Source: Candidatus Micrarchaeaceae archaeon (GTDB lineage Archaea; Micrarchaeota; Micrarchaeia; Micrarchaeales; CABMGC01). From it: a DNA stretch of 17,761 nucleotides. The stretch's first letter is position 1. Each line of letters opens with the position of its first letter. The notes beneath the pieces were generated by a model. It worked only from the letters and a program-made list of their open reading frames with translations, did not search any database and was not told the DNA's origin. Made by a program: the position numbers and the translations under genes. Location of the stretch: assembly GCA_038877255.1 (NCBI GenBank), contig JAVYWZ010000015.1, positions 1 through 17,761 of the forward strand, given 5' to 3'. Of this stretch, positions 1,677 to 13,467 are shown one piece after another.

Positions 1677-3731
1677 ATGGCGGTCCAGTTTCGTCTTGCA
1701 GCTGTCGTTTTGGTAATTGTGCTGCTGCTCGGTTATTCCCATGCCTATTCTTTAACACAGCTAAACACGTTGCTTGTGCGCTACAATGTTTCGCCATCAC
1801 TCATTGCTTCTCTAAAGCTCGTTTACATTAATTACTCTGGCGTAGAGTATGCTGTCCTATACAACAACACAGTGCCTTACTTTATTGTAAACACTTCAAG
1901 CGACAGCTTCGTGCTTAATGCAACAAGCATATACGACATAATAAGAAATTACACAATGGAGAACGCACTCGCAGGCATTAATTTTTCGAAGCTTAACACG
2001 CAGATGAATAAATATCAGAGCTCTTCCTCTGGGCCTATAAACGATTGCCTCCACGAGACTGGGCTCGATACAGGGCTTACTTGTACGCTTGCAAACAACT
2101 GCGATTCTTGCCAGGTAGTGCCCGTGTGCAAGGATGTGCTTGACAACACTTCAGGGCCGAGTGGCGTAGTGGGCTTGGGCATAATCAAATTTGAAAACCA
2201 GTACAGCGTGCTTAATTCCAGCTATAACGCATTCTACTCGCTTCTGCACGGAATAAACAGCACAAATGCGCTTCTAAGAATTGCAGGCTTAGAGAGCGCG
2301 TTTTACAACATATCTAATATAAGCAGCACACTTTACCAAAATCCAATATTCCCACCAACGAACGTGACGCCAAATATGCTTGCAACGTGCATAAACTACC
2401 CAACACTAACAAACGCGCCATGGTACTGCTCAGCAGTGGGCTTTTGCGAACAGCTTACCTATAACACTTCCCTGCTCAACACAATGCAAAATGAAATTAA
2501 CGCGATAAACAGATCGCCGCTCTCTAACCAGCAGGTATACGCGCTTGCGCAAAAGGCAGGCGCGATTCAGCTTAGCTATGTTTATCCAGTTCTTTCAAGG
2601 CAGCGCTACGCAGCGCTGCAAACGGCAATAAATTCAAGTCTTGGCAATTACTCAGTCATGATTAACAATGTTGAAGGATTGCTGAGCCACGTAAACAACT
2701 CTACTATGGTCAGTGACCTTGTGCTTCTTGAGAAGAGTTACAGCACATTGCAGAATAACTATTTGACAGAGAACATAAGCAGCGCAGTAAATTCGACGGC
2801 GTTACTGCTTAATAACCTGAACGCTTTATATGAAAAGGTAAATGGCACCTATTCGCGCATACTGAACCTTGCTTCTGAAAACACTGCAAAATTGCTTGAA
2901 GCGCAGCTTACAAACCCGATGCAGACAGGCCTTGTAAATCTTGCATTTCAGGAAATGGGTCTTAACAGCATACTTAGCAAAGGGAACTTAAGCAACACAG
3001 CAAATTTGCAGGCAAATCTTGAAAATGTCTCTGCAAAGGCTAAAGCATACGGCACAGCTGCATTCGGCTTGGTAGAGATTTCGCGCGCCATCGATGGCGC
3101 TTTTGCAAGGCCTCTTGCTTACGCATTGCACATGCCATATAGCAGCGCTGTTGCGGCTTCGCCTTTGCTTGGCTCGTTGCTCTCTTTGATAATAGGTATA
3201 GTGGCAATCTTGTGCTTGGTTTTTGTGCGCTCCTATCTTTCGCTGAAGCACAAGCTTGTTCTGAATAGGCGCACAGCAAGGAACTGGCGTTTGCTGACTT
3301 ACATTGCAATACTGCTCTTGATAGTTTATGTGCTTGCAACATATGTTGTGCTTGTTTACGCTAACGCGCACGCGCCTTATAGCGCTTTTGCAAGCGCTGT
3401 TGCCAATTCTAAGTATGTGGTAATAGCAATCAACGGAACGCCAACGCTTAATACATATTCTTGCGCAAGCAGCATAAGCGCAAAGGCAAGCGCACTGGGC
3501 AAGAATCCAGTGCTTGTTTCTTTCGTTGGCAATTTGTGCAAGTTAGGAAACAACACCATGAGCGTCAGCGCGTGCATGAACTATTACTCAGCGCTGAACA
3601 TACCTATTATACTGCTCACTAACAGCACGGGTTCAGGCATTGGCCTGTATTCGCTCTACGGCACAGTGCTCAACTATTTTGGCAATGTATCGGTAATGAA
3701 CGCATGCTATCCTAAATTGCTTCTAAATTAG
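1677..3731 (+). CDS. Large secreted/membrane glycoprotein of unknown function
   Basis: 684-aa ORF with a signal peptide ending SHA|YS, more than 20 N-x-S/T sequons, a Cys cluster, a helical region, two TM helices around a basic loop (KHKLVLNRRTAR) and a C-terminal 4-Cys domain. TTTTTAAT at 1651-1658 suggests a leaderless transcript. Confidence 0.85.
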   Translation: MAVQFRLAAVVLVIVLLLGYSHAYSLTQLNTLLVRYNVSPSLIASLKLVYINYSGVEYAVLYNNTVPYFIVNTSSDSFVLNATSIYDIIRNYTMENALAGINFSKLNTQMNKYQSSSSGPINDCLHETGLDTGLTCTLANNCDSCQVVPVCKDVLDNTSGPSGVVGLGIIKFENQYSVLNSSYNAFYSLLHGINSTNALLRIAGLESAFYNISNISSTLYQNPIFPPTNVTPNMLATCINYPTLTNAPWYCSAVGFCEQLTYNTSLLNTMQNEINAINRSPLSNQQVYALAQKAGAIQLSYVYPVLSRQRYAALQTAINSSLGNYSVMINNVEGLLSHVNNSTMVSDLVLLEKSYSTLQNNYLTENISSAVNSTALLLNNLNALYEKVNGTYSRILNLASENTAKLLEAQLTNPMQTGLVNLAFQEMGLNSILSKGNLSNTANLQANLENVSAKAKAYGTAAFGLVEISRAIDGAFARPLAYALHMPYSSAVAASPLLGSLLSLIIGIVAILCLVFVRSYLSLKHKLVLNRRTARNWRLLTYIAILLLIVYVLATYVVLVYANAHAPYSAFASAVANSKYVVIAINGTPTLNTYSCASSISAKASALGKNPVLVSFVGNLCKLGNNTMSVSACMNYYSALNIPIILLTNSTGSGIGLYSLYGTVLNYFGNVSVMNACYPKLLLN

Positions 3732-4270
3732 TGGTTCTTGTGGTAAAATCTGGAAAATTAGAGAACAAAGCAGCTGTTGAAAAGAGCGCTAAAAAAGCGA
3801 AAAACTCGATGTTAATTGCGATCGCAATCGCAGTGCCAGTGCTTATTGTGTTTTTCGCGCTTGTTTTGTTACTGAGGGCGCCAGGCGTGCCTTTTACTGT
3901 ATTCAAGGGCAATTTCTACGGCGCGAGCAGCGCTTCTATAGTTGCAACTTATAGCAACGAATCCGAGTTCGTCTCAGAAGCCGATTGCGTTGGCATGCTG
4001 CGCGAGCTGATTCACTTCAGAAATACTAGCGACGTGCACGTATTCTTTATAAACAGTACCAACAGCTCATGCATCTTTTCACCTACTGTGACTAACATAA
4101 CGCTGCAGATCAAGCCAGCAAGCTACTGCTTGCGCATAGCAAATTCAGAGCCAAGCATCTTTCTGAACTACAGCAGCATAAACGTTAGCACAGTAACTGC
4201 TTACAAGCTCACAATATACGGCAATACGGAGTATATGCAGCGCTGCCCTATCGCAATAGACATGTCATGA
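3731..4270 (+). CDS. Membrane-anchored hypothetical protein, apparent paralog of the C-terminal domain of the upstream protein
   Basis: GTG start overlaps the upstream TAG (TAGTG). Lys-rich N-terminus, one TM helix, extracellular domain with 4 Cys and several sequons. Confidence 0.8.
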   Translation: MVLVVKSGKLENKAAVEKSAKKAKNSMLIAIAIAVPVLIVFFALVLLLRAPGVPFTVFKGNFYGASSASIVATYSNESEFVSEADCVGMLRELIHFRNTSDVHVFFINSTNSSCIFSPTVTNITLQIKPASYCLRIANSEPSIFLNYSSINVSTVTAYKLTIYGNTEYMQRCPIAIDMS

Positions 4271-4342: not shown

Positions 4343-4786
4343 ATGGCGATGCTTGCAGTAAAACATCTTTGTGTGATAGTGGGGCAGGATGACTTATACA
4401 AACGCATGCCGGCTCAGGAAACTGTGCAGTCGATGAATGGCGCACCTGTATTTTACAAGGTACTGCCAAACCATTTGATTGCAAAACTAATACCAGAAGC
4501 ATTTACATCTGATGAAAAACTATTGTATTATAATACTGCTGTGTTCGACGCGTTTTTCCCGGAAAGCAAGCTAAAAACAACAATAGCGGTGCGGTCACCT
4601 ATGTTATATACTGGATTAGGCGACTTGCCCGTGTTCCTTTCTTGGGAGAAGAAATTTGAAACGTTTAGAGAAGCTGTTAGGAATCCTGAAAACTTGGTTA
4701 TTGATGCTATAGAACTAAAAGGAATGCGAAGGCTAAGTAACGAAGAAAAAGTTGTGCAACTTGTAAGCACGATAGGCATTGCGTAA
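4343..4786 (+). CDS. Hypothetical protein (no recognised family)
   Basis: 147-aa ORF filling the gap between neighbours, with its own TATA box. The true start could be a later ATG. Confidence 0.65.
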   Translation: MAMLAVKHLCVIVGQDDLYKRMPAQETVQSMNGAPVFYKVLPNHLIAKLIPEAFTSDEKLLYYNTAVFDAFFPESKLKTTIAVRSPMLYTGLGDLPVFLSWEKKFETFREAVRNPENLVIDAIELKGMRRLSNEEKVVQLVSTIGIA

Positions 4787-6869: not shown

Positions 6870-8009
6870 CTAGCTTGTGATCAGATCTGGCGTTTCAACT
6901 ATTTTCTGCTCTTTCATGGTTATCTTTTTTACTTTGTTTTTGCTTTCCAAATAAGCATAAATATTGCTGTAGCGCATGTCAAAGTTTCTAACTGCTATGG
7001 ACCCTATGAGCACACTTTTAATTGCTGTAAATTTCACGTGTGCGCCACGCAATGAACTAAGTTTCTGCATTTCACGGCTTAGCTCCTTGTTGTCTTTTAC
7101 ATTTATAATTGCTATGCTGCCTATGGGGCTAAAAGTATCTGCGATATAAGTGTATACACATTCATCCTCACTTTGCTTTACCATGTCTTCGTACCATTGC
7201 TCTTTGCTTTTTTCGAATATGCTTTCGTTGCTTATGCTTATCTGCGCTATCGCAGAGATTTTGCGTTTAGGTATTTCTTCTATATATGTCATGTGCTTAA
7301 GGACACCAGTCCTTACCAGGCGCTCATAAGCATAAAGCATTTGCGTCGAACCTTGGCCATATTTTGAGCCGATGTCAGAAAAGGTAGCCCTGCCATCTTT
7401 TATAAACCCAAGCAATATGTTCTTGTAGGAGTCAAAGAGATTAAACTGCTGCACAAGCTCCTCGCTCGCAGGGAAAAAGCCATGCGTTGTCCAGATTCTG
7501 TTAACGTTTTCAGTCATGCTATATTTGTTGAGCTTGGCGTTGAATTTATCAAGGAAGTATCTTATATCGTCGTAGGTTCTTGAAACCATATACGCGAATA
7601 CGTCGTACGCGCCCTTTCCCGAAGCTGCAAACTGTATCATGTAATTATTGCCAAGTGCGCTTGCGATGCTGTTGTCACTCGGCTTTTCGCCTTCAAAATT
7701 TATCGTTAGCATGTATTCATTAAATCCTGTGTTCGCTACAATCTCTGTTGCTCCGCCTATTATGCCCCTTTTTGTCTGCGACCTCGCCTGCCTTGCGAAT
7801 TCCATGCGCCACAGGTTTTCAAGGCTTATCTCCGGGCAAAAACGGAGGCCATACTTTTTTATTGTTTCTGCAAGAAGGGCGTATGCGGTTGTCTTGCTTA
7901 TGTGGAGTTCGTTAGAAATTTCCTGCAAGCTGGCCCTTGAATTGACACTCAGCATTTTCAAAAGGGCATTTTCGTTGCGCTGTTCTAACATGTCTTTTGT
8001 GAGAACCAT
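6870..8009 (-). CDS. Lrp/AsnC-family regulator with two tandem wHTH-RAM-like units
   Basis: HTH1 LLKMLSVNSRASLQEISNELHISKTTAYALL and HTH2 ILLGFIKDGRATFSDIGSKYG...YERLVRTGVL. GKGAYDVF resembles the Lrp G.YD motif. Confidence 0.8.
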   Translation of the reverse strand: MVLTKDMLEQRNENALLKMLSVNSRASLQEISNELHISKTTAYALLAETIKKYGLRFCPEISLENLWRMEFARQARSQTKRGIIGGATEIVANTGFNEYMLTINFEGEKPSDNSIASALGNNYMIQFAASGKGAYDVFAYMVSRTYDDIRYFLDKFNAKLNKYSMTENVNRIWTTHGFFPASEELVQQFNLFDSYKNILLGFIKDGRATFSDIGSKYGQGSTQMLYAYERLVRTGVLKHMTYIEEIPKRKISAIAQISISNESIFEKSKEQWYEDMVKQSEDECVYTYIADTFSPIGSIAIINVKDNKELSREMQKLSSLRGAHVKFTAIKSVLIGSIAVRNFDMRYSNIYAYLESKNKVKKITMKEQKIVETPDLITS

Positions 8010-8296: not shown

Positions 8297-10489
8297 TCAG
8301 TCAAGAAAATCTTCTGGTTTTGGCGGCTCTTCAGGTATGCCTTTTCTCTTTCTTATCTCTCTGACTATTTTGTCTTGGAGCTCCTTCGGCAAGCGTTCGT
8401 AGCCTGCATATTCAGTGTACCATATCGCCCTGCCGCTAGTTATGCTTCTAAGCTCGCTTGAAAAGCCCTTTATTACTTCTGCAACTGGCATCTTCGCTGA
8501 GATCGTTACTTCTTCGCCTTCCTGCTTTATCTCTTGAATGTGGCCACGCTTGCTTTGCAACATATTTATTACATCTGTTACATATCCCTGGGGCACGTTT
8601 ATTGTGAAGATCTGCTTTGGTTCAAGCAGTATGTCATGTGCAAGTAGCATGCCCCCGTTTATAGGTCTGCGTATTGCCGGTATTATTTGCGCAGGGCCCC
8701 TGTGCACAGGGTCTTCGTGTATCGTGGCGTCGGTAATCAGGATCTTTATGCCTGTGCATTTTTCCCTGGCAAGCGGTCCGTCTTCCATTGCCTCTTCAAA
8801 GCCGTCTACAAGAAGCTCCATAACTTCATTCATGTACTGCACGCCATGCGTCGCGTCTATAAGCACACTTGAGTTCTTTATATCTACAACATTTCTTGCC
8901 TGCTCTCTTTGCAAGCCCGCACTTATGAGCTTTTCAACAGTCTCTCTGCCTTTGGGCTTGCCCTCGTTTATTGCTCCTTGCTCTATCAAATCAACAACGC
9001 CCTGCTCCAGGGGCTCAACATTTATATAAAACTTTGAAAGCCTGTTAGGTGCCTTGCCCTGTAGGTCTTCCACTTTGTCTTCAATAGTTTCTCTATAAAC
9101 CACTATAGGGTCGCTTGTTGTTATTGGTATTTTGTAATCGTTCTTGAGCTTTGTCTCTATTATTTCAAGATGAAGCTCGCCCAGTCCGCGTATGATGTGC
9201 TCTCCAGTTTCCTGGTTTATCTCTACTTTGAAAGTAGGATCTTCTTTTGAAAGCTCCCTGAGCGCCTCTATAAGCCTTACTGTATCTTTTGTTTCTTTTG
9301 CCTCTATCGCCTTTGCAACAACAGGAGGTGAATAATGCCGTATCTCTTCGAAAGGCGTTATGCCGTTTTCGCTTATGGTGTCTCCTACTGAGATATCCTT
9401 CAAGCCTATAAGTGCTGCTATGTTGCCTGCAGGTATCGCTTCTACAGGGACGCGGTCAGGTCCCATATAAAGTGCTACCTGCTGCAGCTTTTGCTTATCT
9501 GCGAGGCCGCTTATGCTAACCTCTACGCCTTTGTGTGCCACGCCTGAAAATATCCTGCTTATTGCTATTTCGCCTGCATGTTGATCGTATGCTATGCTAA
9601 AAACAACAGCAGCTAAGCCTGCGTTTGGGTCTACTTCTAGCATTGCTTTGCCTTCCTTGCTGTCAAGCTCGCCGTGCCAGATATTTGGCAATCTATATGC
9701 CTGTGCCTCTTTAGGGTTAGGCAGGTGCTCTACTACCATGTTGAGTATCGCTTCGTCTATGGGAGCAGTTTCCCTTAACTTTTCAAGGTCGCCTTTTGCA
9801 GTGAGCTCGAAGATGTCTTTAAAAGTTATCTTGTACTTGTCCATGATTCTTATTGATATGGCCCATCGCTCATATGCAGAGCCGAATGCCACATTGCCTG
9901 CGTTTACGCTTATTTTCCATTTCTCTGCGAGCTCTTCACCGCCGTACCTTGCAATTAGCTTGTTTATGTTGTTTATCAATTCTAGCAATCTTTCATATGT
10001 TTGCTCTGGAGTAAGCTTTAGCTCTGTAAGCAATCGGTCAATCTTGTTTACAAAAAGCACAGGCTTTGCCTTCTCCTTGAATGCCTGCCTAAGCACTGTT
10101 TCAGTCTGAGGCATTACGCCTTCTACTGGGTCTACTACAAGCACAACGCCGTCAACCGCACGCATAGACCTTGTCACATGGCCGCTGAAGTCTACATGAC
10201 CTGGCGTGTCTATCAGGTTTATTATGTAGTCTTCGCCTTTGTAGTCAAATGCCAGGGATATGTTTGCAGATTTTATCGTGAGCCTTCTCTCCTTTTCGAT
10301 CTCATCATAATTAGTATAAAGGACTTCGCCTGCAACTGTCTTCGATATTATGCCTGCCTTTGCAAGAAGGGCGTCTGTAAGCGTTGTCTTGCCATGGTGA
10401 ACATGCGCTATTATTGCAACGTTCCTCACTTTGCTTATATCGTGCATTATCTTTACTACTTCCTCTGCAACAAACTCCTTCCTTACCAT
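8297..10489 (-). CDS. fusA: Archaeal translation elongation factor 2 (aEF-2)
   Basis: G1 AHVHHGKTT, G3 DTPGHVDF, G4 NKID, GLGELHLE and diphthamide loop HEDPVHRGPAQ. Lies directly downstream of rps7. Confidence 0.98.
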   Translation of the reverse strand: MVRKEFVAEEVVKIMHDISKVRNVAIIAHVHHGKTTLTDALLAKAGIISKTVAGEVLYTNYDEIEKERRLTIKSANISLAFDYKGEDYIINLIDTPGHVDFSGHVTRSMRAVDGVVLVVDPVEGVMPQTETVLRQAFKEKAKPVLFVNKIDRLLTELKLTPEQTYERLLELINNINKLIARYGGEELAEKWKISVNAGNVAFGSAYERWAISIRIMDKYKITFKDIFELTAKGDLEKLRETAPIDEAILNMVVEHLPNPKEAQAYRLPNIWHGELDSKEGKAMLEVDPNAGLAAVVFSIAYDQHAGEIAISRIFSGVAHKGVEVSISGLADKQKLQQVALYMGPDRVPVEAIPAGNIAALIGLKDISVGDTISENGITPFEEIRHYSPPVVAKAIEAKETKDTVRLIEALRELSKEDPTFKVEINQETGEHIIRGLGELHLEIIETKLKNDYKIPITTSDPIVVYRETIEDKVEDLQGKAPNRLSKFYINVEPLEQGVVDLIEQGAINEGKPKGRETVEKLISAGLQREQARNVVDIKNSSVLIDATHGVQYMNEVMELLVDGFEEAMEDGPLAREKCTGIKILITDATIHEDPVHRGPAQIIPAIRRPINGGMLLAHDILLEPKQIFTINVPQGYVTDVINMLQSKRGHIQEIKQEGEEVTISAKMPVAEVIKGFSSELRSITSGRAIWYTEYAGYERLPKELQDKIVREIRKRKGIPEEPPKPEDFLD

Positions 10490-10493
10490 AGGA

Positions 10494-11231
10494 TTACCTT
10501 GCGCTTCTTGCTATCCTCTCTTGCTCTACTTTCCTTTTTATGGCATAGCTGTTAGGGTCTTTGCTTGCAGCAAGCATTATCTCATTAGCAAGCGCTTCTT
10601 TCAACTCTTTCTTATTCTTGAATGCGCTTATTAGCGCAGCAAGCGCTATGTTCCTAAGTGCAACGTCAAGCCTTCTAGAAGCACTTATTCCCACTGCAAC
10701 ATTGTAGTTTATCCCTCCGTAGCGTATGCGCGTAGTGTCATCTATTGGTGCTGAATTTTCGAGAGCGTCGACAAAAACCTGTATTGGATTTTTGTTGGTT
10801 TTGCTGTGTATAATGTCAAATGCGCGTTCGACTATGCCTATGAGCTTTAATTTCTTCCCCTGTAGCCTGCCTTCTGTTCTTATCACTATGCCGCCTATCT
10901 TTTTTCCTGTTCCGCCTCGCATGAGCTTATTGACAAGCCGCTCGACTATGCTGACTTGCGTCACGTAATGGGCTTTGTCTTTTCTCCTGCCGAACGTGTT
11001 TATGTTTGATCTGGGTGTCAGCAAGATGTAATTGGCAAGGCTAGCATCTTCTATTACAACGTCTTTGGTGCTGTACTTGCCAAATACTAATTGTTCTTCC
11101 AAGCCTATGTTGCGGACTTTCTTTGCTGCCGGTTTCCTTGTTCTAGCTGTTTTTTCATCGCCGTGCTCGTTTGCTACATTGTTAGTATTGTCTGATTTAA
11201 AGTCTGTTTTGTTGCTTGTTTCTTCTTGCAC
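10494..11231 (-). CDS. rps7: 30S ribosomal protein uS7 with N-terminal extension
   Basis: IVERLVNKLM, NPIQVFVDALENSAP, TTRIRYGG and ERIARSAR. GTG start 4 nt after the rps12 stop. Confidence 0.96.
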   Translation of the reverse strand: MQEETSNKTDFKSDNTNNVANEHGDEKTARTRKPAAKKVRNIGLEEQLVFGKYSTKDVVIEDASLANYILLTPRSNINTFGRRKDKAHYVTQVSIVERLVNKLMRGGTGKKIGGIVIRTEGRLQGKKLKLIGIVERAFDIIHSKTNKNPIQVFVDALENSAPIDDTTRIRYGGINYNVAVGISASRRLDVALRNIALAALISAFKNKKELKEALANEIMLAASKDPNSYAIKRKVEQERIARSAR

Positions 11232-11235
11232 TTAA

Positions 11236-11664
11236 TCATCTCTTTGGTTTTTCCTTCCTGCCCTTTACTATCTCATAAAGGTCTACGCCGTTGACTTTTA
11301 TTACCCTATACTTAAGCCCGGGTATGCATCCCATCTGGCCACGCTGAGAGCCGCCAAGGCCTTGCACCATTACTTCATCATGCTCTTCTATGAAGCCTAT
11401 TGAGCCGTCATAAGGAACGTAAGCACCAACAACCTTGCCATTCTTGGTAAGCTGCACACGGACGCACTTTATAAGACCTGAGTGCGGCTGCTTCTGCTGG
11501 AGGCTGAACTTCTGGAGTACAAGTGCCCTTGCCATTGGTACTGTTCCTACAGGATCATACTTTTGCTTTAGCTTGAAGTACTTTCTTTTCCACCACTTCT
11601 TGAGCATGCGCTCCTTGTGCCTCTTCTTTACGAGCTTCAACGCAGCGAATTCACCGTTTGACAA
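11236..11664 (-). CDS. rps12: 30S ribosomal protein uS12 (archaeal S12/S23 type)
   Basis: KCVRVQLTKNGK, IEEHDEV, IPG and GRKEKPKR. TTG start with AAGGTG SD. Confidence 0.97.
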   Translation of the reverse strand: MSNGEFAALKLVKKRHKERMLKKWWKRKYFKLKQKYDPVGTVPMARALVLQKFSLQQKQPHSGLIKCVRVQLTKNGKVVGAYVPYDGSIGFIEEHDEVMVQGLGGSQRGQMGCIPGLKYRVIKVNGVDLYEIVKGRKEKPKR

Positions 11665-11673
11665 TATAGCACC

Positions 11674-11976
11674 TTAATCATAATTTTCTTCCAGTATTTT
11701 AGAAGCGCCAGGATCTAATATTGCTAGCGTGCTAACCCCAAAAGGCTTGCCGCACACGGCGCCAAGTTCTACTGGATTGCCCTTGAAATTGAGGAGCTTT
11801 GTGCCTGCAAGTTTGCACGCATGTGTTATGTCACTTATGTTATCTCCTTTACTCGAAGACGCAACAATAGCCACCTTCGCTTTGCCCTGTGTTATTGCTT
11901 TTATAGTTTCCTTTATTCCAAAGCTTATGCTGCCTGTCTCTACTGCAAGCCTCAAATCGGCACTTAAATCTGGCAT
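11674..11976 (-). CDS. rpl30e: 50S ribosomal protein eL30
   Basis: LRLAVETG, ELGAVCGKPF and ILDPGASKIL match L30e. Confidence 0.95.
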   Translation of the reverse strand: MPDLSADLRLAVETGSISFGIKETIKAITQGKAKVAIVASSSKGDNISDITHACKLAGTKLLNFKGNPVELGAVCGKPFGVSTLAILDPGASKILEENYD

Positions 11977-12483: not shown

Positions 12484-13467
12484 TCAGTGCTGTATTGTCT
12501 GGCTGCAGCCTGCTGTGCTTATGCCTCCTTTGAAGGCAAGCGTGACATAGCCCAAATAAGGAATGTGCGCAAGCACGTAACCCACTACCTGATTTGTAAC
12601 TGGCGGGTAATTGCCGAATTCTATGTCAAGTGCCTGGTTGTTGTCTCCTTTGGTAAGTATATAGTAATTATTTCCGGAGTGTATTGCCGCAAAAATCCTA
12701 TGCACTATGTCTCCGGAGAACGTGTCGCTCGGAATGGTTCTGTATACTATTATTGGATTTGAATAGTTTTCAATTATCGTTTCATTGCCTATTGTTATGC
12801 TTTTTGTGTAAACTATGCTGAATTGGGTTCCATTTACCGTGGCATTGCCTATGCCATAACTATATTTTATGAGATTGCCATTTTGGCTGCTGTTGCTTAA
12901 CAGGCATTTGTAAAAATCCTGGCTTTCGTTTAAGTACGAGTATACACTAAGGCAGCGTGTATTGTAGAGACCTATGCTGTAGTTTTCGCCTGGTTTTAAT
13001 AAATAGGTTATGTCTGATTTGTCACCGTTAAGGAAAGCGTAATAGGCAAGGAACTCATTGTTCATATTGTTCAGCATTGCGTTATACGAGCTTGTGCTAA
13101 CGTTTACAATTGGAATCTTATGCTGCGCAAGAAACATTGTCATGTTGCTTATGTGTTTTAATATTACAAGGTCACCAATCTTGAGCACGGGCAACATGCT
13201 GCAGCTTGGTACTACATCAACAGGCGATAGCGTGCCCAGCACTACTATCGCAATTAGCCATATCGCGATAACAATGCCTATTGCTTCTGCTACCTCTTTT
13301 GCTGCTTTTTTAGCGCCCTCTGAGTGTATGTCGCGACGTGTCTCTTCCACTACTAGCAGCACGAATACCACTATGAATGCTATGCTTAGCAAGGCAATTC
13401 TTGTTAGCGCGTAAGCTATCAGCGACACTGCTAACAGTATATACAGCGCAGCTTCTGCTGCGCTCAT
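12484..13467 (-). CDS. sec11: Signal peptidase I (S26, archaeal/Sec11 type) with large insertion; start may extend to ATA 13545
   Basis: N-terminal TM helices, catalytic Ser box VVPSCSMLP...GDL, His box DIVHRI, TKGDNN...D and IPYLGY. Confidence 0.9.
   Translation of the reverse strand: MSAAEAALYILLAVSLIAYALTRIALLSIAFIVVFVLLVVEETRRDIHSEGAKKAAKEVAEAIGIVIAIWLIAIVVLGTLSPVDVVPSCSMLPVLKIGDLVILKHISNMTMFLAQHKIPIVNVSTSSYNAMLNNMNNEFLAYYAFLNGDKSDITYLLKPGENYSIGLYNTRCLSVYSYLNESQDFYKCLLSNSSQNGNLIKYSYGIGNATVNGTQFSIVYTKSITIGNETIIENYSNPIIVYRTIPSDTFSGDIVHRIFAAIHSGNNYYILTKGDNNQALDIEFGNYPPVTNQVVGYVLAHIPYLGYVTLAFKGGISTAGCSQTIQH

Follow-up and report, generated by a model that had tools for sequence, protein, structure and literature searches.

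The EF-2 Gene and Its Surroundings

The stretch of DNA analyzed here, referred to as the window, comprises 17,761 nucleotides and is contig 15 (JAVYWZ010000015.1) of the 713-kb genome of a Candidatus Micrarchaeaceae archaeon (GCA_038877255.1; genome label G000), which is assembled in 30 contigs and rated 92% complete. Its minus strand, on which all the features described in this and the next paragraph lie, encodes a translation elongation factor 2 (EF-2) of 730 amino acids (8297..10489), assigned by Pfam, by whole-genome search and by alignment to solved EF-2. All five Pfam domains (GTP_EFTU, domain 2, EFG_III, EFG_IV, and EFG_C) score above their cut-offs, and the closest solved structures are those of archaeal EF-2 (5h7j, E 5e-245). 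Three residues of its GTPase center differ from the canonical ones. The P-loop, or G1 motif, reads AHVHHGKT (residues 28–35, 10385..10408) and carries His31 (codon CAC, 10397..10399) at the position of Asp31 in EF-2 of Methanoperedens nitroreducens (MnEF-2); Asn60 (AAT, 10310..10312), within TNYDE, replaces the switch I Asp found in all 44 Asp31 sequences of a 64-sequence alignment; and the switch I (G2) motif, ERRLTI (residues 67–72, 10274..10291), has Arg69 (AGG, 10283..10285) in place of Gly69. Both 5h7j and 9ou7 align with Asp, Asp, and Gly at these three positions. The remainder of the center is conventional by translation and alignment: G3 is DTPGH with the catalytic His98 (residues 94–98, 10196..10210), G4 is NKID (residues 148–151, 10037..10048), G5 is FGSAY (residues 202–206), the diphthamide loop is HEDPVHRGPAQ (residues 591–601, 8687..8719), Lys34, the Mg-binding Thr35 and the Mg ligand Thr71 are all kept, and Glu67 is acidic. 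A previous reading of the letters alone (the sequence-only reading) had reported His31 (10399-10397), Arg69 (10285-10283), and the Asn of TNYDE, together with an intact G3 including its catalytic His, an intact G4 and an intact HRG loop; all of this proved exact.

The gene closes a run in the order L7Ae/L30e-family ribosomal protein (11674..11976; PF01248, E 1e-16), ribosomal protein S12 (11236..11664; PF00164, E 7e-33), ribosomal protein S7 (10494..11231; PF00177, E 3e-37), and EF-2, with S7 as the operon gene that directly precedes EF-2. With its five domains, the G3 His, G4, G5, an HxDxxHRG loop, and a single copy after S12 and S7, the protein has the marks of a bona fide archaeal EF-2. Those of paralogs such as aEF-2p or EFGII-like proteins are lacking, for it is the sole copy and possesses both His98 and the diphthamide loop. 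What it lacks is the cation motif of Kuhle and Ficner, made up of a P-loop Asp and a switch I Gly (PMC8244253; PMC4342817). The Asp of AHxDxGKT is absent because His31 takes its place, and the Gly of RGITI is Arg69; the backbone carbonyl at residue 69 remains, so that this ligand may persist.

EF-1alpha follows EF-2 in many archaeal str operons. In the window genome it is found on another contig, and the gene downstream of EF-2 (6870-8009, minus strand) encodes a 379-amino-acid protein in which the one match is a weak one, to a winged helix at the N-terminus. Five other open reading frames of the window (147–684 amino acids; 1677-3731, 998-1489, 3731-4270, and 4343-4786 on the plus strand, 12484-13467 on the minus strand) have no Pfam match at a cut-off of E 0.001.

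Conservation in Micrarchaeia and Copy Number

The best 120 homolog clusters, 67–100% identical to the window EF-2, have His at residue 31 in 119 cases and Leu in one, and Asn60 in every case. At residue 69, 92 clusters have Arg and the other 28 have Lys, with at least six interchanges between the two on a tree, and residue 67 is always Asp or Glu. Across 54 genera, His31 and Asn60 are essentially invariant while synonymous codons turn over. This pattern indicates that the three-residue package is under purifying selection and that Arg/Lys69 in Micrarchaeota is selected for charge.

The extent of this state within the class was assessed with codon patterns in which residue 31 was either free or restricted to His, applied to 401 genomes of the phylum sample, all from the class of the window genome (two unpublished genomes, G197 and G029, are included in the counts). 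The free pattern matched 351 of the 401 genomes, and the 150 matches listed for it all come from families other than the two named next and all have an Asp codon. The His-specific pattern matched 167 genomes, namely the window genome, 75 of 82 genomes in one family (f1), and 91 of 94 in its sister family (f2), so that 166 of the 176 sampled genomes of these two families have a His codon at this position. It was absent from the codon scan of a third family of the order (f3, 0/1) and of all other families in the class (0/223), and in ten genomes that represent nine of those other families, the EF-2, one per genome, has Asp31, Asp60, and Gly69. Three genomes within the order are exceptional: G336 has no assembled EF-2, the only f3 genome (G366) has Asp31, Asp60, Ser69, and Met70, and one f2 genome (G363) has Asp31, Asp60, Gly69, and Ile70. 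In Micrarchaeia, the His state has gone to fixation in the sister families f1 and f2.

A whole-genome protein search found one EF-2 in the window genome, the other matches being two distant GTPases, aIF5B and EF-1alpha. Both of these keep the canonical Asp (GHVDHGKT with GGITQ in aIF5B, GHIDHGKS with ERGMTI in EF-1alpha), which answers a question raised by the sequence-only reading. The His-type gene is likewise the only EF-2 in all five further His-type genomes that were searched, including the complete genome of the cultured Nanopusillus acidilobi.

That the His motif is an artefact of sequencing, or belongs to a spare, inactive paralog, therefore has next to no chance of being true. Recurrence of the motif in 166 other sampled genomes and its near-invariance among the homolog clusters rule out an error, and the single EF-2 of the window genome and of the five others, one of them complete, rules out a canonical second copy. 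The gene also occupies the canonical operon position, and it retains the catalytic His and the diphthamide loop, unlike the paralog-like sequences P0153 and P0256. The representative of the one Leu31 cluster differs from a cluster mate at residue 31 only, and that mate has His. Since both CAC and CAT are in use among the genomes, His31 is retained while its codon drifts. As judged from these comparisons, EF-2 of the window genome is the working translocase of the organism, with a discrete alternative build of the GTPase center.

The Same Residues in Other Archaea

A wider scan for His-type P-loop codons, with one genome per GTDB species, returned at least 120 loci. The 120 matches listed consist of 115 readable EF-2 N-termini, three cut or masked EF-2 sequences, and two chance bacterial matches; the following counts refer to the readable loci among them. 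DTPGH is kept in all 115, and neither Asp60 nor Gly69 occurs in any. When carriers are assigned by record title, Trp60/Leu69 is found at 66 loci from Woese-, Pace-, and Nanoarchaeota, Asn60/Leu69 at 20 loci from Thermoplasmata, Asn60/Arg69 at 20 and Asn60/Lys69 at five loci from Micrarchaeota, Trp60/Glu69 at three loci including Nanopusillus acidilobi, and Asn60/Cys69 in a single record. In the phylum around a Pacearchaeota genome, 50 of 201 sampled genomes are of the His type. In the class around a Thermoplasmata genome, the pattern with residue 31 free matched 133 of 151 genomes, of which 18 have His (one of them unpublished, G702) and 115 have Asp only (manual row count). The suggestion that the change may be shared across DPANN archaea does not hold, because it is confined to two families within the class of the window genome, is present in only a part of the phylum around the Pacearchaeota genome, and occurs outside DPANN in Thermoplasmata.

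Several observations accompany these scans. G748, from the class around the Thermoplasmata genome, has beside its canonical Asp-type match a second P-loop match (contig 1, 95091-95113) that translates as AHVRHGKT, the Asp codon being replaced by one for Arg. In Nanopusillus acidilobi (G401 contig 1, about 331649-332032), aIF5B reads GHVGAGKT and EAGEMTQ and has thereby lost the P-loop Asp and the His next to it as well as the Gly of switch I, so that a second translational GTPase is affected; in other His-type genomes, aIF5B keeps the Asp, and its switch I position varies (R, Q). Long EF-2 representatives of 916–1233 amino acids (P0123-P0131, P0137) have, in eight of the nine printed, an intein-like insertion right after the GK of the P-loop (between HGK and C), and two representatives with such an insertion, P0123 and P0131, have a His-type P-loop. 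Some His-type loci stand in records with ill-fitting labels, namely a Woesearchaeota-type EF-2 on a 2.6-kb contig labeled Paceibacterota bacterium, a Micrarchaeota-type EF-2 in a record ranked by NCBI under Acidobacteriota, and six loci in records labeled uncultured Methanosarcinales; mis-binning or mislabeling is the likely reason.

Independent Origins and a Reversal

A maximum-likelihood tree was built from 64 full-length sequences with the columns from the P-loop to switch I excluded. All Micrarchaeia form one clade (support 100), and the His clade of Micrarchaeota (support 100) is nested among Asp-type Micrarchaeia as the sister of the f3 sequence with Asp31, Asp60, and Ser69 (support 97). 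The Thermoplasmata His pair has an Asp-type representative as its sister (support 99). The Nanoarchaeota types belong to another clade, of mixed composition (support 99), and the tree as a whole requires five or more changes of state. Approximately unbiased (AU) tests, whose groups were defined by the trait and which were run with the tree already seen, rejected trees that unite all His types (delta lnL 421, p 1.5e-7), and adding the revertant led to the same outcome (delta lnL 267, p about 7e-62). A single origin of His followed by transfer between Thermoplasmata and DPANN symbionts is ruled out by the tree and these tests.

The revertant is EF-2 of G363, which is 78–81% identical over its full length to five His-type genus mates, themselves 82–93% identical to each other; in windows along the protein, its identities to the mates are similar except in the last 30 residues. 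These values rule out a mis-binned or foreign gene, and such a profile marks G363 as a genuine member of its genus that has returned to Asp31, Asp60, Gly69, and Ile70 together. From the codons, the changes at Asp31, Asp60, and Gly69 take one nucleotide step each. The Ser69/Met70 combination of f3 could be a way-station state. By this tree, three or more archaeal lineages acquired the package separately, and it was undone in its entirety on at least one occasion.

These histories bear on the view that the His type is plain degeneration, that is, a crippled GTPase center tolerated in slow-growing symbionts with reduced genomes, in which damage under relaxed selection is partly compensated. Many carriers are indeed DPANN archaea with genomes of 0.5–1 Mb, the Asp is also lost from aIF5B in Nanopusillus, and the D21A mutation at the corresponding Asp of EF-Tu lowers the ribosome-stimulated GTPase rate about 1000-fold (PMC5084732). 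We consider degeneration very improbable, however, since His31 and Asn60 are held essentially invariant over 54 genera despite synonymous turnover, His was reached at least three times, carriers include Thermoplasmata with genomes of about 1.4–2.5 Mb, every other catalytic residue is retained, and the reversal in G363 restored all sites at once.

Coupling of Residues 31, 60, and 69

Four independent contrasts were used, in which the His clade of Micrarchaeota was compared with the remaining Micrarchaeia, G363 with its congeners, the Thermoplasmata His type with its Asp-type sister, and the Nanoarchaeota His type with its Asp-type neighbors. All four show a switch at columns 31, 60, and 69, and at no other of the 730 columns. 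No further convergent site was found among these columns in four of four contrasts, and the nine that switch in three are all variable in Asp-type sequences as well. In the 64-sequence alignment, none of the 20 rows with His31 or Leu31 has Asp60 or Gly69. The 44 rows with Asp31 have Asp60 without exception and Gly69 in 89%, and the tightest partner of Asp31 is therefore Asp60 rather than Gly69, although the sequence-only reading had touched on residue 60 only briefly.

Residue 69 brings up another explanation, in which Arg69 or Lys69 would be a built-in finger that reaches from switch I into the cation site, His31 merely removing a trapping carboxylate. A cis arginine in switch I is known from G-alpha proteins. 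The constancy of Arg or Lys in all 120 clade clusters through at least six interchanges fits such a finger, as does the fact that in G363 Gly69 is restored only along with Asp31 and Asp60, and in P-loop nucleoside triphosphatases (NTPases), K+ and Arg/Lys fingers share one position and have been interchanged in evolution (PMC6310460). On the other hand, in the remaining lineages with His31, residue 69 is Leu (86 loci), Glu (3), or Cys (1) among the matches listed, so a basic residue there is not required for a working His-type EF-2; Arg or Lys69 also coexists with Asp31 in four of 150 representatives, and residue 67, always acidic in the Micrarchaeota clade, may pair with residue 69. The finger is thus an unlikely explanation, and the idea of the sequence-only reading that Arg supplies the charge in cis lacks generality.

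The Sarcin-Ricin Loop

The sarcin-ricin loop of 23S rRNA has a canonical core (G form) in the window genome (contig 1, 24988-25001, in a 23S gene at 24775-27606, minus strand) and also in G038, G402, G403, G405, and G409. A universal compensating change in this loop is ruled out by these six genomes. The bulged G at E. coli position 2655 is among the most conserved rRNA bases. In a His-type f2 genome, G099, an A stands at the bulged-G position of a loop inside the Rfam-defined 23S gene; the position corresponds to G2655 by the oligonucleotide sequences in PMC3496166, and the G2655U change abolishes detectable binding of EF-G to a loop oligonucleotide (PMC3496166).

A degenerate loop pattern matched 119 of the 181 genomes of the order. 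The A form accounts for 79 of these matches (f1 26, f2 53; manual row count) and the G form for 38 (30 in f1 including the genus of the window genome, seven in f2, and the sole f3 genome), and two genomes have off-type matches only. Among 211 sampled genomes, matches to the A form occurred in 15 of 39 genomes of f1, 33 of 57 of f2, and three of 114 of other families. A reversed control pattern gave four matches in the same 114 genomes, and three is accordingly the level of chance; two of the three lie on a contig other than that of the 23S gene, and the third genome has no assembled 23S. A location inside 23S is confirmed for the A-form match of G099 only. In these samples, the A form is confined to the two His-type families and reflects one or a few evolutionary events. 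The window genome and its genus keep the G form despite their His-type EF-2.

A different change was observed in two very small genomes, both of the His type, Nanopusillus (G401 contig 1, 569680-569693) and G464 (contig 1, 396734-396747): inside 23S, the tetraloop is GAAA instead of GAGA.

A Proposed Role for His31

A monovalent-cation site has been predicted in MnEF-2, which shares the residue numbers Asp31, Gly69, Thr71, and His98 with the window protein; the cation would be held by the Asp31 carboxylate, the Gly69 backbone carbonyl and phosphate oxygens (PMC8244253). The P-loop Asp has been called invariant in translational GTPases except eIF2gamma, its mutation abolishes K+ stimulation in EF-Tu and eIF5B, and in ribosome-bound EF-G it holds a Mg2+ ion near A2662 of the sarcin-ricin loop (PMC5084732). 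That both cation ligands are lost, as the sequence-only reading had it, is true of the Asp31 carboxylate, which is gone from the sole intact EF-2 and whose loss is coupled to switch I, but it goes too far for Gly69, which ligates through its backbone carbonyl (PMC8244253) and varies where Asp31 is kept.

The reading that we favor, with about an even chance of being correct, is that His31 replaces the pair of Asp and cation in the GTPase center, upon which Asp60 and Gly69 become dispensable. His-type EF-2 would no longer have the carboxylate-based site, to which the side chain of Asp31, the carbonyl of Gly69 and the phosphates of GTP contribute. The imidazole of His31, probably protonated, would lie between the GTP phosphates and a phosphate of the sarcin-ricin loop and would give a hydrogen bond or a charge directly to phosphate oxygens of GTP, of the loop or of both, to which Asp31 would be linked only by way of a bound K+/Na+ or Mg2+. 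Asp60 and Gly69, which presumably shape or neutralize the site, could then be replaced, and Arg/Lys69 in Micrarchaeota would be a second, lineage-specific basic group. The appearance of His in every independent origin favors a specific replacement over simple loss, and the invariance of His31 within clades, together with the untouched catalytic machinery around it, favors a specific role for His.

Several points weigh against this proposal. Among EF-2-family representatives with Asp31, residue 69 can also be C, S, A, T, Q, K, or R, and variability of eEF2 at the switch I Gly position was noted by Atkinson 2015 (PMC4342817). The coupling is not absolute, as P0153, a paralog-like protein of 623 amino acids with no diphthamide loop, combines His31 with Asp60. 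A link of Asp60 to the cation site is suggested by co-variation only, and no stated role for Asp60 was found in the available text of the translational-GTPase and EF-2 literature searched. Glu69 of the Nanopusillus type and the always-acidic residue 67 beside Arg/Lys69 fit no simple rule of adding positive charge. K+ stimulation of EF-Tu was not seen on the ribosome, and the role of the cation is disputed (PMC5084732). The term 'cation-independent' may therefore be the wrong frame, the relevant loss being perhaps that of the bridge from Asp through Mg2+ to the sarcin-ricin loop.

A cation might instead still be bound in a rebuilt site, with His31 and Asn60 as neutral ligands, directly or through water, and perhaps with NH4+ or a divalent metal that favors imidazole. 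Imidazole is a poor ligand of K+ and Na+, and Trp60, found at 69 of the 115 readable His-type loci among the matches listed, is not a metal ligand at all. The residue 69 carbonyl and the phosphate oxygens are nonetheless available whatever the side chain, the window EF-2 has three P-loop histidines (His29, His31, and His32), and the K+-dependent GTPase MnmE uses an Asn at the equivalent place in its P-loop to bind the cation (PMC6310460). With the loss of K+ stimulation upon Asp mutation in EF-Tu and eIF5B also standing against it, we regard a rebuilt site as improbable.

If His31 does substitute for Asp and cation, a broader picture can be drawn, in which archaeal EF-2 would exist in two interconvertible builds of the GTPase center, the His build being defined by His31, Asn or Trp at residue 60, and a residue other than Gly at 69. 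Its imidazole would do the job that falls to Asp plus cation in all translational GTPases studied to date, hydrolysis would be independent of the metal of that site, and the constraint on the sarcin-ricin loop would perhaps be loosened in Micrarchaeota, where most sampled genomes of the two His-type families have A for the bulged G and the 23S gene of no other family checked does. Taken as a whole, this picture is possible but unlikely.

Significance and Comparison with Known Systems

The contribution of the P-loop Asp and its cation to ribosome-triggered GTP hydrolysis is still debated, and His-type EF-2 amounts to a natural experiment on the use of metal ions by ribosome-activated GTPases, for whole lineages, including a cultured organism, live on a His31 EF-2, and one lineage has switched back. 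It yields a defined set of three residues, a new partner residue in Asp60 and a possible link to the sarcin-ricin loop. EF-2 is moreover a common phylogenetic marker, and convergence within the motifs that it conserves best can lead to wrong alignments and trees. A published His variant of the EF-2 P-loop (AHIHHGKT, AHVHHGKT, HHGKT, or 'P-loop aspartate' as search terms) was not found in the searchable literature, and a term search of the available text of a paper on EF-2 evolution (PMC6143161) showed that it does not use 'P-loop.' What appears to be new is that the GTPase center of EF-2 has a second state, defined by three residues, which recurs, is reversible and is found in the sole translocase of several archaeal lineages.

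Canonical archaeal EF-2 (5h7j, 9ou7, 6q2d, and 6u45/6u43 from M. nitroreducens) is orthologous to the window protein and has the same architecture, length, operon position, and, in MnEF-2, residue numbering, as well as the same Lys34, Thr35, Thr71, His98, G4, G5, and diphthamide loop; the two differ in His31/Asn60/Arg69 against Asp/Asp/Gly (5h7j, 9ou7). EF-G-2, or EFGII, of Thermus and other bacteria resembles the window EF-2 in working on ribosomes although it lacks the switch I Gly and the P-loop Asp, the latter being replaced by Gly (PMC8244253; PMC4342817). Atkinson 2015 named EFGII as the only added exception to the invariant Asp (PMC4342817). Thermus EF-G-2 has, however, lost the catalytic His along with the Asp and the Gly (PMC8244253), and EFGII accompanies a canonical EF-G as a second copy, whereas the window EF-2 is the only copy, keeps its catalytic His and has His in the P-loop. 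In eIF2gamma, too, the P-loop Asp (Ala) and the switch I Gly (Asn) are missing, and no cation is bound (PMC4342817; PMC5084732); that GTPase is activated by a protein factor (PMC5084732), whereas EF-2 is activated by the sarcin-ricin loop. The closest parallel in idea is the exchange of K+ for Arg/Lys fingers in P-loop NTPases, in which a cation between the alpha- and gamma-phosphates is replaced by a charge of the protein (Shalaeva et al., 2018; PMC6310460). Those fingers come from a partner or another domain, whereas the His of EF-2 lies within the P-loop itself, at the position of the cation ligand, and its exchange is seen within one orthologous protein and in both directions.

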